The notes under the pieces are model-generated. The model worked only from the letters and a program-made list of their open reading frames with translations. It was not told the DNA's origin and searched no databases. From an uncultured virus (IMG/VR IMGVR_UViG_2648501449_000003) (Duplodnaviria > Heunggongvirae > Uroviricota > Caudoviricetes), in the IMG/VR virus record IMGVR_UViG_2648501449_000003: 20,000 bases of DNA, one strand, 5' to 3'. Shown piece by piece: positions 7,649-11,359 of this stretch. The stretch's first letter is position 1; each line of letters opens with the position of its first letter. Position numbers and translations under genes: made by a program.

Positions 7649-10600
7649 ATGGCACACGACTACCCCGACGATCACTGTCGAGCGCAGGCGGAAAGAGGTC
7701 AACACAGAGTGGATCTGAAGATTGATCATTGGATACGTGGGCAGGACGAGGACGGTGCGGTGTCTTTGGCTCGAACCCTGTGCATGGCCGAGCGAGGGCG
7801 CCTCGGACTGCCACTGGATACTGTCGCCATCAGCGGAAGAGTCAAGACAGCCGATGAAGGCATTGATGGGCGCACGAAATTCCCCGAGACGGCTGACACG
7901 GACTTCCCGCGAGGGCACAACGTCTGGCAAATCAAGAGCGGAAAGACGGCCCCTTCGGTCTCTAAAGAAATCAATCCGACGAAACACGCGGCGCTCATCG
8001 AGGCAATCAAGAACGGCGCTGACTACGTGTTGTTTTGGACCAACGACCCGATCGATAAACAACGAAAGGCAGTCACAACGGCGTTCACAAACGCGGTCAA
8101 GAAGATTCGAGCTGACGCTAACGTCGTCACGATTTTTGCCGACGAGATCGAGCAACTCTGCTACCAACATGTTGCTGTACTCGCTCAACATGGGCCGATG
8201 CCGATCAGCGGCTTGGTGGGTCTCGAGGTGTGGGCGCGCGGGTTTTCGCCGATTGAATTCGAACCGGACGCGCCACGCCTCGCAGCGATCGACGCTGTCC
8301 GCCAACACGTCGCGGTCCGCAACGAACCGAACGCAATTCTCGTCTACGGAGACACCGGCGTTGGCAAAAGTCGCCTTGTCTACGAGGCTCTCGCTCAAGA
8401 CGGCGTACGTGAACGCGTTCTTGTCGCACGCGACCCAAGCGGATGGAATCAGGGGCTCCTATCTGACATCGCGAACACCCCCGGCAGCTCTCTTATCTTG
8501 GTAGTTGACGACTGCGATGCCGACGAGCGGCGCAGGCTCAACAACCTGGTCGGACTGTGCCAAGGCCGCATTAGGCTCATCACGACTGGACCTCGCACGA
8601 CCCGCGAGCGAGCGATCGAAGACCGTCGCCGGCTCGAACTGCTTCCCCTCGAGGCTCAGGCCAGCAAGAACATCGCGTTGTCGAGGGGGCTCGACGAGCA
8701 ACAAGCGTCCCTCGTCGCGAGTCTCACTGACGGCTATCCGGGTCTCGCAGATGCGCTTGCTATCGCGCTCGCGAACGGCGGACCAGACTCCACACTGTTG
8801 GAGCAAATTCGCGCAGACGATGCTATCGGCCCAGTCTTTGCAACACTGATCAGTGACGACGAAGTTCCCGCCCTTGGGCTGGTGGCTTTATTCGAACGCC
8901 TCGGGTTCGAAGGTGACTTGGCACTTGAGTTGCGATTGGCCTGCGAAGTCTTTGACATCGACGAGGCTTCAGTGCGCGGGGTGGCCGACCGAGAATTGCG
9001 GCGTTTTGTATCGACTGCCGGACGCTATCGTCGGGTGACCCCGAGAATCTTCGCCGTCTGGCTCGCGGCACGGTTCTTGCAGCTGCGTTCGACCACGATT
9101 GCTGACGAGCTCGACAAACTGCCTGAAGTTCTGCGGGAACGGATCGTAGACCAGATGCGACAGTTCGCCGGAGACCCGGTAGTTTCGCGCACCCTTGGGG
9201 TGCTTCTGGAGGAAGCCCCTTTTACGGACGGCGCCATAGCTGACGTGGACGATGGCGCCGCTCGACTTTTACACGTCGCGTCCATTGTGGATCCGGCAAC
9301 TGCGATGCTGACAATCGAACGGATCATGAACGGAGTAACCACCGAGCAACTCGCCTCGGTTCGAAGTGGCCGCCGCGACCTCGTTCAAGCGATCGAGGTG
9401 TTGCTCTGGTCTGGTGACCTATTCGAGCGGGCCGCTACTGCAGCTTTGCGACTCGCGATGGCTGAAAACGAGCAGTGGTCGAACAATGCGACCGGCGCGG
9501 TTCAGGGCATATACCGAGTCTTCCTTGGCGGAACAGGCGCAGATTACGCACGAAGGATTAGTTGGACACGAGAAGCGCTGAGGGCTCACGGGCAAGCCGC
9601 GACACGGATTGTTATTCCCGGCCTCGCATCGGCTTTCGACCCCCACGAAACCCGCTTCGCGACAGACTTTGGTGGCCGAGTGCCGCCGATCGAGTGGCGA
9701 CCAGCCACGTTCGCGGAAGAGGCTGCTGCACGTATGTCAGCGTGGGAATTGCTAATCGAGATCGCACGTAATGAGTTGGATTCGCGCGATTCGGTTGCAC
9801 GCTCTCTCGCCCAAGGACTCCGCACTGCGTTGTCGCGCGGCATCCCCACCGAAGCGCTTGCGTCGCTCGGCGAAGTTGAATGGCCTCCGCGCGGGCGCGC
9901 AGAACTGATCGAAGCTCTCAATCACGCACGCACATACGACGAGCCAGATCCAGAACTCGACGCCAAAATTTTCGATCGCATCACACATCTAACTGGTGAA
10001 GGCATATATCAGCGCGCTGCTTATGTCTTCGCAGCTTCCGTCTGGGAGCTCTCCGAGGACCTCGACGAGCGCGTTGCTGGCCTGCCAGGACCGCTTGTCA
10101 ATCTCGTTGAGGAAACGGCAGTTGGAGGAGTGGCCGTCTGGCGGCAGATCATCGAAATCGCAAAGGACGGAAACGCGGATACTGCGAGCAGATTCTTTGA
10201 AGAGCTTGCGAAGCGGGCCCCTAGCGTTGAGTTCGAGGTTGAGATGGAGACGCTCCCGCAGCCCCCACTTCCGGCGTTAGTGGGTTATCTTCGTGGCCTC
10301 GCCATGGTTGATGCGGTAGATCCGGTGGTAGTACTCGAAAGATGGATCACCAGCAAGGACCTGGGAAAGGCGGTACTTCAGGGCATCCACCTGTTACCCG
10401 CGACCGATGTGCTTGCCGAGCTCGCGATCAAAGCGGTTAGGCAAGGGTCGGCGCCCGCCGAGGAGGTTGGCCGCTTCCTGTATGGCGGCTGGACTCGTCC
10501 GCTCAGCGCCGATGCGGTGGCCGGTCTGCTGGAACTGCTGGTCGAAGCAGCACGGAACCAAATTCGAGATGGCAACGACAACCGCGTGCACCGCACGTTG

Positions 10601-11359
10601 GATCAAGCTCTTGGCATAGCGGATCAGTGGACTGAAGTCACTCCAGTTCCCCCTGTCGGTTCCCGGCTCAGGTCGGTCTTGACCGATCTACTCACCATCT
10701 CGGAAGCAGCAGAAGGCACTCCTGGCGGTTCCACAATGGTGGATCTTCACGTCGGTAACATCCTTCCGCGCCTGGGCCTGACTACCGCGGAACGACTAGA
10801 AATGCTGCTGCGACGCCTTCAATCACTGAACTCATTTCCGTCCGATTACGTTCTGAGCGAGCTGGACGAGCTCAGTCGTGCTGAACCGGTCGTGGTGGTG
10901 CCAGCGATAGTCGAGTTTTTGGAGGCTAGCGCGGATGGCACCTTTCACCGATGGTCGTTGTGGCTTGACGACGCCAAGGTCCTAAGCCGTATTCAGCGGG
11001 TGATCGGGCCCGATCAGCTCCTTCCTCTAGTAGCCGATATCGACGACCCGAAGATCTGGTCTCAACTAATTGGTCATGTCGCGTTTGATACTGACGAGCC
11101 CGACCCTTTGCTAGTTGCGATTCTTGGCACGTCCGACGATGCAGAACTGCGTGGAGCGGCGACGGTCCGATTCATGCACCCGCATTCGACCGCGTGGGGA
11201 CCTGAGTCCGACAATCTCAAAGGTCGACGCGAGACGGCCAGTCAATGGAGTGCCTTGCCTGGACAGCCGCGACTTTTCACCGAATGGCTCGCTGGAGTTG
11301 TCGAAGCGCTGGACCAAGCGATCAGTTCGGCGGAGCTGCGCGAAGCCGAGGAACGGTGA
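7649..11359 (+). CDS. Large STAND-class NTPase with N-terminal restriction-endonuclease-like (Mrr-type D...QxK) domain; Avs-like anti-phage candidate
   Basis: N-terminal DEGIDG...WQIKSG, Walker A GDTGVGKS (8348-8371), Walker B LILVVDD, sensor LITTGPR, STAND GxP motif TDGYPG, then ~800 aa that look helical. The real start may be GTG 7709 (AGAGG upstream). Confidence 0.8.
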   Translation: MAHDYPDDHCRAQAERGQHRVDLKIDHWIRGQDEDGAVSLARTLCMAERGRLGLPLDTVAISGRVKTADEGIDGRTKFPETADTDFPRGHNVWQIKSGKTAPSVSKEINPTKHAALIEAIKNGADYVLFWTNDPIDKQRKAVTTAFTNAVKKIRADANVVTIFADEIEQLCYQHVAVLAQHGPMPISGLVGLEVWARGFSPIEFEPDAPRLAAIDAVRQHVAVRNEPNAILVYGDTGVGKSRLVYEALAQDGVRERVLVARDPSGWNQGLLSDIANTPGSSLILVVDDCDADERRRLNNLVGLCQGRIRLITTGPRTTRERAIEDRRRLELLPLEAQASKNIALSRGLDEQQASLVASLTDGYPGLADALAIALANGGPDSTLLEQIRADDAIGPVFATLISDDEVPALGLVALFERLGFEGDLALELRLACEVFDIDEASVRGVADRELRRFVSTAGRYRRVTPRIFAVWLAARFLQLRSTTIADELDKLPEVLRERIVDQMRQFAGDPVVSRTLGVLLEEAPFTDGAIADVDDGAARLLHVASIVDPATAMLTIERIMNGVTTEQLASVRSGRRDLVQAIEVLLWSGDLFERAATAALRLAMAENEQWSNNATGAVQGIYRVFLGGTGADYARRISWTREALRAHGQAATRIVIPGLASAFDPHETRFATDFGGRVPPIEWRPATFAEEAAARMSAWELLIEIARNELDSRDSVARSLAQGLRTALSRGIPTEALASLGEVEWPPRGRAELIEALNHARTYDEPDPELDAKIFDRITHLTGEGIYQRAAYVFAASVWELSEDLDERVAGLPGPLVNLVEETAVGGVAVWRQIIEIAKDGNADTASRFFEELAKRAPSVEFEVEMETLPQPPLPALVGYLRGLAMVDAVDPVVVLERWITSKDLGKAVLQGIHLLPATDVLAELAIKAVRQGSAPAEEVGRFLYGGWTRPLSADAVAGLLELLVEAARNQIRDGNDNRVHRTLDQALGIADQWTEVTPVPPVGSRLRSVLTDLLTISEAAEGTPGGSTMVDLHVGNILPRLGLTTAERLEMLLRRLQSLNSFPSDYVLSELDELSRAEPVVVVPAIVEFLEASADGTFHRWSLWLDDAKVLSRIQRVIGPDQLLPLVADIDDPKIWSQLIGHVAFDTDEPDPLLVAILGTSDDAELRGAATVRFMHPHSTAWGPESDNLKGRRETASQWSALPGQPRLFTEWLAGVVEALDQAISSAELREAEER

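Follow-up and report, generated by a model that had tools for sequence, protein, structure and literature searches.

A mycobacterial tRNA-Met island carries a probable, divergent antiviral STAND NTPase of the Avs8 (PD-lambda-4A) family

PD-lambda-4A of Escherichia coli (ECOR07) was reportedly discovered by Vassallo et al. in 2022. The PD-lambda-4 system has since been renamed Avs8, and its Avs8A protein is described as a combination of an Mrr nuclease and a P-loop STAND protein that major capsid proteins switch on (bioRxiv 10.1101/2025.07.02.662641). According to the same preprint, Avs8A defends by itself, Avs8B being dispensable; it binds lambda gpE with a dissociation constant of 127 nM and also the Bas21 capsid protein; it binds monomers and is not activated by assembled virions; its degradation of double-stranded DNA (dsDNA) requires capsid protein, ATP and Mg; and a nuclease active-site mutation abolishes defence. 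In the account of Lee et al. (2026, bioRxiv 10.64898/2026.01.04.697583), Avs8 is one of three families sensing the major capsid protein, and its recognition of HK97-fold capsid proteins, even very divergent ones, reportedly relies on their shape. These authors define Avs families by the structural cluster of the sensor (Foldseek, 80% coverage, TM 0.40) and state that related NTPase clades may bear different sensors. Here, we analyzed a 20,000-nucleotide stretch of DNA recorded as an uncultured virus (IMG/VR IMGVR_UViG_2648501449_000003), the whole of which we call the window, and in particular its gene at 7649-11359 on the plus strand. We consider it probable that this gene encodes a divergent antiviral STAND NTPase of the Avs8 (PD-lambda-4A) family and is borne as cargo by a 9.6-kb integrative island at a tRNA-Met gene. 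Judged by its sequence, the protein is a new member of the known Avs8 type and not a new system.

The Avs8-like gene is represented by an uninterrupted open reading frame (ORF), the longest form of which encodes 1236 amino acids (aa) from an ATG at 7649. Its translation contains all the motifs named in a first-pass annotation of the window, namely DEGIDG (residues 69-74), WQIKSG (93-98), GDTGVGKS (234-241), LVVDD (284-288), LITTGPR (310-316) and GYP (362-364). When 5.8 billion proteins were searched by word index, 57 homologues were retrieved, mostly 1196-1257 aa long and with 96-99% query coverage, which were annotated just as 'hypothetical protein' and stem from Mycobacterium, Mycolicibacterium, one Acidobacteria metagenome-assembled genome (MAG) and many metagenomes. 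We built a family alignment of 48 relatives with identities down to 30%, across which E48, D69, G71, D73, G74, W93, Q94 and K96 of the N-terminal domain, D235, G237, V238, G239 and K240 of Walker A, V285 and D287 of Walker B, and R309, G314, R316, G362, Y363 and P364 are invariant. The patterns D-x-G-x-D-G, Q-x-K and GYP were each found in 48/48 relatives. Because these residues are invariant in 48 relatives, the gene must be real and under selection.

The N-terminal part of the protein is predicted to be a PD-(D/E)xK nuclease effector domain of the Mrr type, comprising residues 21-185 (7709-8203, plus strand), as indicated by an AlphaFold2 model and conserved motifs. The model, calculated for residues 1-215 with 52 aligned sequences, has a mean predicted local distance difference test score (pLDDT) of 86.6, and its elements (helix 34-52, strands 59-61, 74-78 and 89-96, helix 114-121 and strand 125-130) follow the order alpha-beta-beta-beta-alpha-beta. 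As modelled, the domain is a restriction-endonuclease-like fold, in keeping with the nuclease proposed in the first-pass annotation. E48 is located on the first helix, D73 opens the second strand and Q94-x-K96 closes the third. In canonical Avs8A, the invariant residues aligned with the candidate catalytic E48, D69/D73 and Q94-x-K96 are E31, D52/D56 and Q79-x-K81. All leading structural matches of the model were PD-(D/E)xK nucleases, the nuclease head of Avs4 being the best, and a Foldseek search of the PDB gave weak rows only, with MspJI and Cap4 on top. At the sequence level, positions 16-154 of the PD-Lambda-4_A model matched the domain in a six-frame genome search (E 4e-6). Taking the model at face value, the protein carries an N-terminal Mrr-family PD-(D/E)xK effector with an intact active site, as in Avs8A.

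The nuclease domain is followed by a P-loop NTPase core, which we place at residues ~205-330 (8261-8638, plus strand; borders inferred) from its Walker motifs and from profile alignment with hhalign. In addition to the Walker A sequence GDTGVGKS, this core contains a Walker B motif, VVDDC (284-288), and the sequence RLITTGPR (309-316), and Pfam AAA_16 gives a sub-threshold P-loop match (E 3.4e-4). The Walker A, Walker B and GxP motifs align with their Avs8A counterparts in hhalign, and the module thus appears to be a STAND-type P-loop NTPase homologous to that of Avs8A. The adjoining region, residues ~331-480 (8639-9088, plus strand; borders inferred), is putatively helical and winged-helix-like and harbours the invariant GYP, found in all 48 relatives as compared to GFP in 18/19 canonical Avs8A proteins. 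As a side observation, all common variants of the window clade have VVDDC[DE] at Walker B; in the 19 canonical Avs8A proteins the motif reads VVDNC, such that Asn takes the place of its second acidic residue.

The assignment to Avs8 is carried by comparisons with defence models and with canonical Avs8A proteins. PD-Lambda-4_A was the sole PADLOC family matched (E 8.9e-20, residues 213-726 against positions 222-747 of 1283); at E <= 1 nothing was returned besides two PD-Lambda-4_A models from this library, whose content of Avs1-5 models is unconfirmed. NCBIfam gave nothing meaningful, the best E value being 0.0037. A search of 185,579 species genomes gave 361 candidate stretches; a relative is encoded by 197 of these, and we retained 80 loci. 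Among 38 full-length ORFs of these relatives, 38 matched PD-Lambda-4_A, 17 along the whole model (positions 1-5 to 1271-1282), 7 along ~221-1279 and 14 partially. In 6 of the 7 relatives covering ~221-1279, an LmuA-like N-terminus stands in place of the Mrr domain; the LmuA-headed loci (L015, L017, L022, L026, L030 and L064, with L053 added by tree position) form a proteobacterial sub-clade of canonical Avs8A, an instance of effector swapping inside one sensor family. Full-length relatives were also observed in archaeal MAGs (L008, L009, L010 and L018, from Thermoplasmata, Methanosarcinaceae and Bathyarchaeia), where the match to PD-Lambda-4_A extends to about position 1010 of the model. A metagenome scan with the single protein yielded nothing; with the alignment, it yielded 39 loci.

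We compiled a canonical Avs8A profile from 19 proteins, comprising the 17 with full coverage and two with near-full coverage, and compared it with the 48-sequence alignment of the window family. The two profiles aligned with a probability of 100 and E 1.1e-87 over 1171 columns, spanning residues 33-1232 of the query and 19-1264 of the template, and they share an invariant Glu, D-x-G-x-D, Q-x-K, GxxGxGK[ST], G[YF]P and ENExW[SA]NNATG. Since long alignments can coast across weak regions, the C-terminus was aligned separately. Residues 790-1236 matched positions 810-1261 of Avs8A with a probability of 98.2 and E 4e-14 over 414 collinear columns, and smaller C-terminal sub-pieces also matched the Avs8A sensor. 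Six controls (one reversed, three column-shuffled and two non-cognate) gave E values of 0.08-0.38. Given the match of the C-terminus by itself and the clean controls, the whole protein, including the sensor, is therefore homologous to Avs8A; for the sensor, homology along its entire length is seen at the profile-profile level only.

We assign residues 481-1236 (9089-11356, plus strand) to this C-terminal sensor on the basis of hhalign, phmmer and hydrophobic periodicity. The conserved first part of the sensor holds the ENExW[SA]NNATG motif (606-616), and its last ~535 residues are more variable. In a crude periodicity test on the family alignment, helix-like hydrophobic peaks (85-115 degrees) occurred in 51-64% of windows across residues 481-1236 and strand-like peaks in 6-9%, compared to 34% and 36%, respectively, for the modelled alpha/beta N-terminal domain. 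These values weakly support a long helical C-terminus. A phmmer search with residues 480-1236 against 1.84 billion cluster representatives gave 1506 matches at E <= 1e-3, 646 at E <= 1e-10 and 59 at E <= 1e-30, and matches to the whole sensor were located at ~460-1200 of proteins of ~1200 aa. In the ESM Atlas, residues 700-1236 had no score >= 0.9. According to the domain model, the P-loop motifs and the helix-like periodicity, the three-part layout proposed in the first-pass annotation, with an Mrr-type nuclease, a STAND NTPase and a long sensor, holds, as does its reading as an Avs-like pattern-recognition protein. Its statement that no named Avs type could be assigned does not stand in light of the hhalign alignment and of the PADLOC check, which it had itself recommended and which pointed to defence kinship and to a single family. 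The novelty it had held possible likewise falls away, a full-length match to a characterised system being found at the profile level, though not by a single HMM (hidden Markov model).

Several observations weigh against a simple placement within Avs8. Neither the window protein nor any of 39 relatives, including eight canonical or intermediate Avs8A-like proteins, matched Pfam Mrr_cat (PF04471), and nSTAND_NTPase5 (PF25199) stayed below its cut-off (E 5.5e-3, 17 bits vs 34). In the nearest ESM Atlas clusters (scores 0.97), 33-50% of members carry Mrr_cat and 22-37% carry nSTAND_NTPase5. Neither the protein nor the family profile had a match among PDB sequences. The PD-Lambda-4_A HMM leaves the last ~500 residues unaligned, and identity to canonical Avs8A is ~21%. 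Among nine sampled proteins matching the whole sensor, eight matched PD-Lambda-4_A, none of them past position 748, and one had no match; among nine proteins matching just the first 250-490 sensor residues, seven reached the C-terminal end of the model. In a FastTree phylogeny of 64 rows, the deepest split (support 100) separates the window clade from all full-coverage proteins. The 36 rows on one side include all 19 full-coverage proteins as well as the LmuA-headed variants. The 28 rows on the other comprise the window clade, which is a single clade with support 100, and further proteins from archaea, Chloroflexota, Saccharibacteria and other actinobacteria. An IQ-TREE analysis of residues 25-700 in 43 rows, from which five long-branch rows and 16 others were excluded, recovered the same split with a value of 99 in the SH-like approximate likelihood ratio test (SH-aLRT). 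Both trees are unrooted, such that 'inside' and 'sister to' Avs8 are indistinguishable in them. The link to the experimentally tested E. coli protein rests on the name of the PADLOC model and on the papers, because a blastn search of E. coli genomes with a Pseudomonas Avs8A gene gave no match and a cluster look-up of four canonical Avs8A representatives yielded no names. Genomic neighbours add a further qualification: 8/23 loci of relatives have at least one PADLOC-matching neighbour among 95 neighbouring ORFs, a count whose members are not independent, L101-L103 being one context and L127-L129 one sub-clade, and the flanks are often short.

The most serious competing explanation is that the protein is the same machine, with a sensor, an ATP switch, an Mrr nuclease and abortive infection as its outcome, and that its sensor recognises something other than the major capsid protein, which would amount to a new specificity class within the Avs8 superfamily. 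The trigger may differ, because identity to canonical Avs8A is so low. Mean pairwise identity in the family falls from 0.54 at residues 481-700 to 0.41 at 701-950 and 0.36 at 951-1236, compared to 0.54-0.58 in the other domains, and this variability of the last two thirds of the sensor fits a target-binding surface. The Avs8 HMM also fails to reach these most variable residues, the deepest tree split separates the clade from canonical Avs8A, and Lee et al. (bioRxiv 10.64898/2026.01.04.697583) describe different sensors on related NTPase clades. Set against this, the C-terminal region is collinearly homologous to the Avs8A sensor, and the shape recognition reported for Avs8 in the same preprint means that sequence drift of the sensor need not alter the target. 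On balance, we regard a non-capsid target as rather unlikely for this protein, though sensor divergence leaves real room for one. On the scale of the clade, we see a modest chance that the half of the Avs8 superfamily made up of actinobacterial, archaeal and Chloroflexota proteins has a remodelled sensor whose target is not the capsid-protein surface seen by E. coli Avs8 but, for example, another conserved structural protein of mycobacteriophages.

We retain an Avs8-type abortive-infection sensor as the best-supported reading. Its likeliest trigger would be an HK97-fold major capsid protein, in view of the sensor homology along the whole length and of the reported recognition of highly divergent HK97-fold proteins by Avs8. 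By analogy with E. coli Avs8A, from which we infer the trigger, oligomerisation, DNA degradation and phage protection, the protein would be produced constitutively at a low level and be autoinhibited at rest. During infection, the C-terminal helical sensor would bind new monomers of a conserved phage protein, most likely the HK97-fold major capsid protein. Binding would promote ATP uptake by the P-loop module and oligomerisation, probably to a tetramer, which would gather the N-terminal Mrr-type PD-(D/E)xK domains. The active nuclease would then cut dsDNA without sequence specificity, such that phage production stops and the infected cell is lost.

To follow transcription of the locus, raw reads of three stranded RNA-sequencing runs (X21, X22 and X24) were mapped to 6700-12700. 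X21 contributed very few reads, and the X17 contig, which covers the whole stretch, is uninformative on transcription. Over the Avs8-like gene, sense-strand depth was 5-38 in X24 and 4-21 in X22, as compared to 0-15 and 0-5 on the opposite strand. First mates over the gene fell mainly on the minus strand, and the pattern was reversed over the minus-strand recombinase gene located upstream (30-78 vs 0-2 in X24). Because the strand pattern is opposite to that of the recombinase gene, the Avs8-like gene is sense-transcribed, at a modest level. In sum, the 7649-11359 ORF is a real and intact gene, both conserved and transcribed. At 8308-8910, opposite-strand depth in X24 was 7-15 beside a sense depth of 23-33; these reads may represent an antisense transcript or library leakage.

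The true start of the protein is probably not the ATG at 7649 but the GTG at 7709, which would give a protein of 1216 aa. In the 48-sequence alignment, the N-termini of relatives correspond to residue 20-21 of the 1236-aa form; the 1216-aa form is on record for 524 contigs and the exact 1236-aa form for 448; and sense RNA depth increases from 0.2-1.2 in the bin 7504-7704 to 12.5-16.3 in the bin 7705-7905. We favour GTG 7709 because relatives begin there, the 1216-aa form is on record and RNA depth jumps after ~7700. The sequence GAAAGAGG is located at 7692-7699, upstream of this codon.

A 9.6-kb integrative island at a tRNA-Met gene carries the Avs8-like gene as cargo, bearing out the earlier suggestion of mobile-element carriage. 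The tRNA-Met gene, identified by ARAGORN, lies at 3030-3104 on the plus strand, and its 3' part is the left attachment site (attL), with a core at 3075-3101; an exact copy of this core, detected by repeat search, forms the right attachment site (attR) at 12685-12711 (plus strand). The 27-nucleotide direct repeat has two matches, with none expected in 200 shuffles, and the longer attachment-site copies, 3052-3104 and 12662-12714, are 85% alike across 53 nucleotides. Adjacent to the tRNA gene, a tyrosine integrase is encoded at 3147-4316 on the minus strand (Pfam Phage_integrase E 3.1e-18; phrog_1 E 7.8e-51), followed by an excisionase-like HTH_17 protein at 4340-4714, minus strand (Pfam HTH_17 E 4.9e-7; phrog_66). 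The island has a G+C content of 56-62%, as compared to 64% at the right end of the window. An empty-site comparison in 40 genomes of the genus could not demonstrate an uninterrupted tRNA-Met site, as the right flank at 17700-19700 was without an orthologue in them. Related integrases (56-66% identity) in five other viral contigs accompany unrelated genes and are uninformative on cargo swapping. A match to the Avs8-like gene was found in 1/400 other genomes of the same family, and that match is distant (26% identity), which makes the gene patchy and accessory.

This mobile setting raises the question of whether the gene serves the island itself rather than defence against lytic phages, be it by warding off rival mobile elements (plasmids or the adjacent prophage, for instance) or as an addiction or stabilisation module. 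The island is small and sits right beside phage-like genes at 1-2800, four contigs in IMG/VR that are predicted to be proviral and measure 47-71 kb include 100% identical copies, and distant relatives were found on 15 plasmids. We nevertheless consider such a role quite improbable, as the homologue that has been characterised is genuinely anti-phage (bioRxiv 10.1101/2025.07.02.662641), defence genes typically travel on mobile elements and no antitoxin-like partner is conserved. Nine immediate neighbour ORFs of relatives had no PADLOC match and differ between loci; because they vary from locus to locus, we see no conserved partner. A decaying or inactive relic, which shortened forms (280-1069 aa) within the same 90% identity cluster might suggest, is hardly credible for an intact and sense-transcribed ORF with catalytic and nucleotide-binding residues invariant in 48 relatives and an exact sequence on 448 contigs.

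Relatives of the gene lie in surroundings of a defence type. The PADLOC-matching neighbours of relatives were TIR/PDC-S65, REase_II, a two-transmembrane (2TM) effector of the CBASS type (cyclic-oligonucleotide-based anti-phage signalling system; E 4e-60), DrmMI/type IIG (E 1.5e-57) and PDC-M41A. The copy in the Acidobacteria MAG is located downstream of a type I restriction-modification system (HsdR, HsdS and HsdM), with a PIN gene nearby. In the window, the island carries a second cargo gene at 11550-12461 (plus strand), a candidate defence gene of the PDC-S32 type (PADLOC PDC-S32 E 7.9e-40, 2-298 of 301 positions). Its product also matched phrog_20667 (E 5.4e-33) and, below the cut-off, AbiJ_NTD4 (E 3.5e-4), and had no PDB relative by sequence. 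With a sense depth of 35-88, it was more deeply covered by RNA reads than the Avs8-like gene. Searches directed at phages gave negative results: a tblastn search of 50,697 phage genomes found none encoding a relative, and Pfam Phage_capsid (PF05065) had no match in the gene's own genome.

The remaining genes between the attachment-site repeats are a DUF3846 gene and the serine recombinase of the resolvase/invertase type at 6749-7567 on the minus strand (Pfam Resolvase E 1.3e-34; phrog_125 DNA invertase E 6.1e-57). The latter is divergent from the Avs8-like gene and has its likely start Met codon at 7363, with the Resolvase domain beginning at residue 81. The 345-nucleotide gap between the recombinase and the Avs8-like gene contains a perfect 13-nucleotide inverted repeat (7373-7385 and 7495-7507) around a 109-nucleotide segment. 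An invertible promoter was considered here and found no support: the segment had the same orientation in the gene's own genome and in four viral contigs, and RNA reads contained no strand-switch joints.

Outside the island, the stretch left of tRNA-Met (1-2800) encodes an exonuclease (phrog_284), an endonuclease VII/HNH protein, a phrog_1042 protein and a DUF2746 or minor-tail-like protein. These phage-like genes are probably the end of a prophage adjoining the island, and each of the four IMG/VR proviral regions is probably a fusion of the island with this neighbouring prophage. The stretch right of attR (12715-17800) keeps a low G+C content of 58-60% and encodes a Cys-rich 348-aa protein of no family (12974-14020, minus strand) and a membrane protein, along with proteins assigned to DUF2971 (14915-16060) and phrog_30065 (16517-17212). 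This stretch may be what is left of a second, older island; no further attachment-site copy was found.

A literature search returned no description of an Avs8-type gene in mycobacteria, with the limit that the supplementary tables of Lee et al. lay outside the material covered and may list the clade; a paper on the Mycobacterium abscessus mobilome contained no relevant passage on such a gene. If correct, our assignment extends capsid-sensing, NLR-like immunity of the Avs8 type to mycobacteria. The island is common in Mycobacteroides abscessus records, as reflected by the hundreds of contigs with the exact protein or the shorter-start form, and the gene may contribute to the variable phage susceptibility of isolates of this species, which would be relevant for the choice of therapeutic phages. 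As the Avs8 HMM covers only ~40% of such divergent members, automated defence annotation likely misses them. The clade also offers a natural test of how Avs sensors drift with their target kept or changed. Should its sensor have been remodelled toward another target, it would constitute an unnamed Avs specificity class, under-called by standard defence finders, and could help to explain why strains differ in phage susceptibility.

Among known systems, Avs7 and Avs10 resemble the proposed mechanism in that a STAND protein wraps its sensor around the monomer of an HK97-fold capsid protein and switches on an effector of the nuclease type (Lee et al., bioRxiv 10.64898/2026.01.04.697583). Going by the published descriptions, they are set apart by other sensor architectures, and Avs7 has a Cap4 nuclease and recruits EF-Tu. 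Avs4 (AVAST type 4) provides the top structural match of the window N-terminal domain with its nuclease head; however, it has no sequence-level relation to the window protein in PDB and PADLOC searches, and it senses the portal protein, as stated in the title of PDB 8DGF (bound to phage PhiV-1 portal). As a two-gene operon, PD-lambda-4 comprises A and B, and the window has no Avs8B-type neighbour: at E <= 0.01, PD-Lambda-4_B matched 0 of 15 ORFs neighbouring the gene. Function does not demand such a neighbour, given that defence by Avs8A is independent of Avs8B. At the canonical Avs8A loci, 12/19 have no co-oriented ORF of at least 70 aa starting within 400 nucleotides of the stop codon, and the other 7/19 have downstream co-oriented ORFs of differing sizes. 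From canonical Avs8A, the window protein differs in its Walker B motif (VVDDC vs VVDNC), in the limited reach of the PADLOC HMM (residues 213-726), in its ~21% identity, in lying on the opposite side of the deepest tree split, and in its actinobacterial host and tRNA-Met island carrier. It nonetheless resembles Avs8A in size (~1216-1236 aa compared to a 1283-position model), in the order of its parts, from nuclease through P-loop STAND NTPase to long C-terminal sensor, and apparently in acting as a single gene, Avs8B being dispensable there and no partner being conserved at the loci of the window clade.

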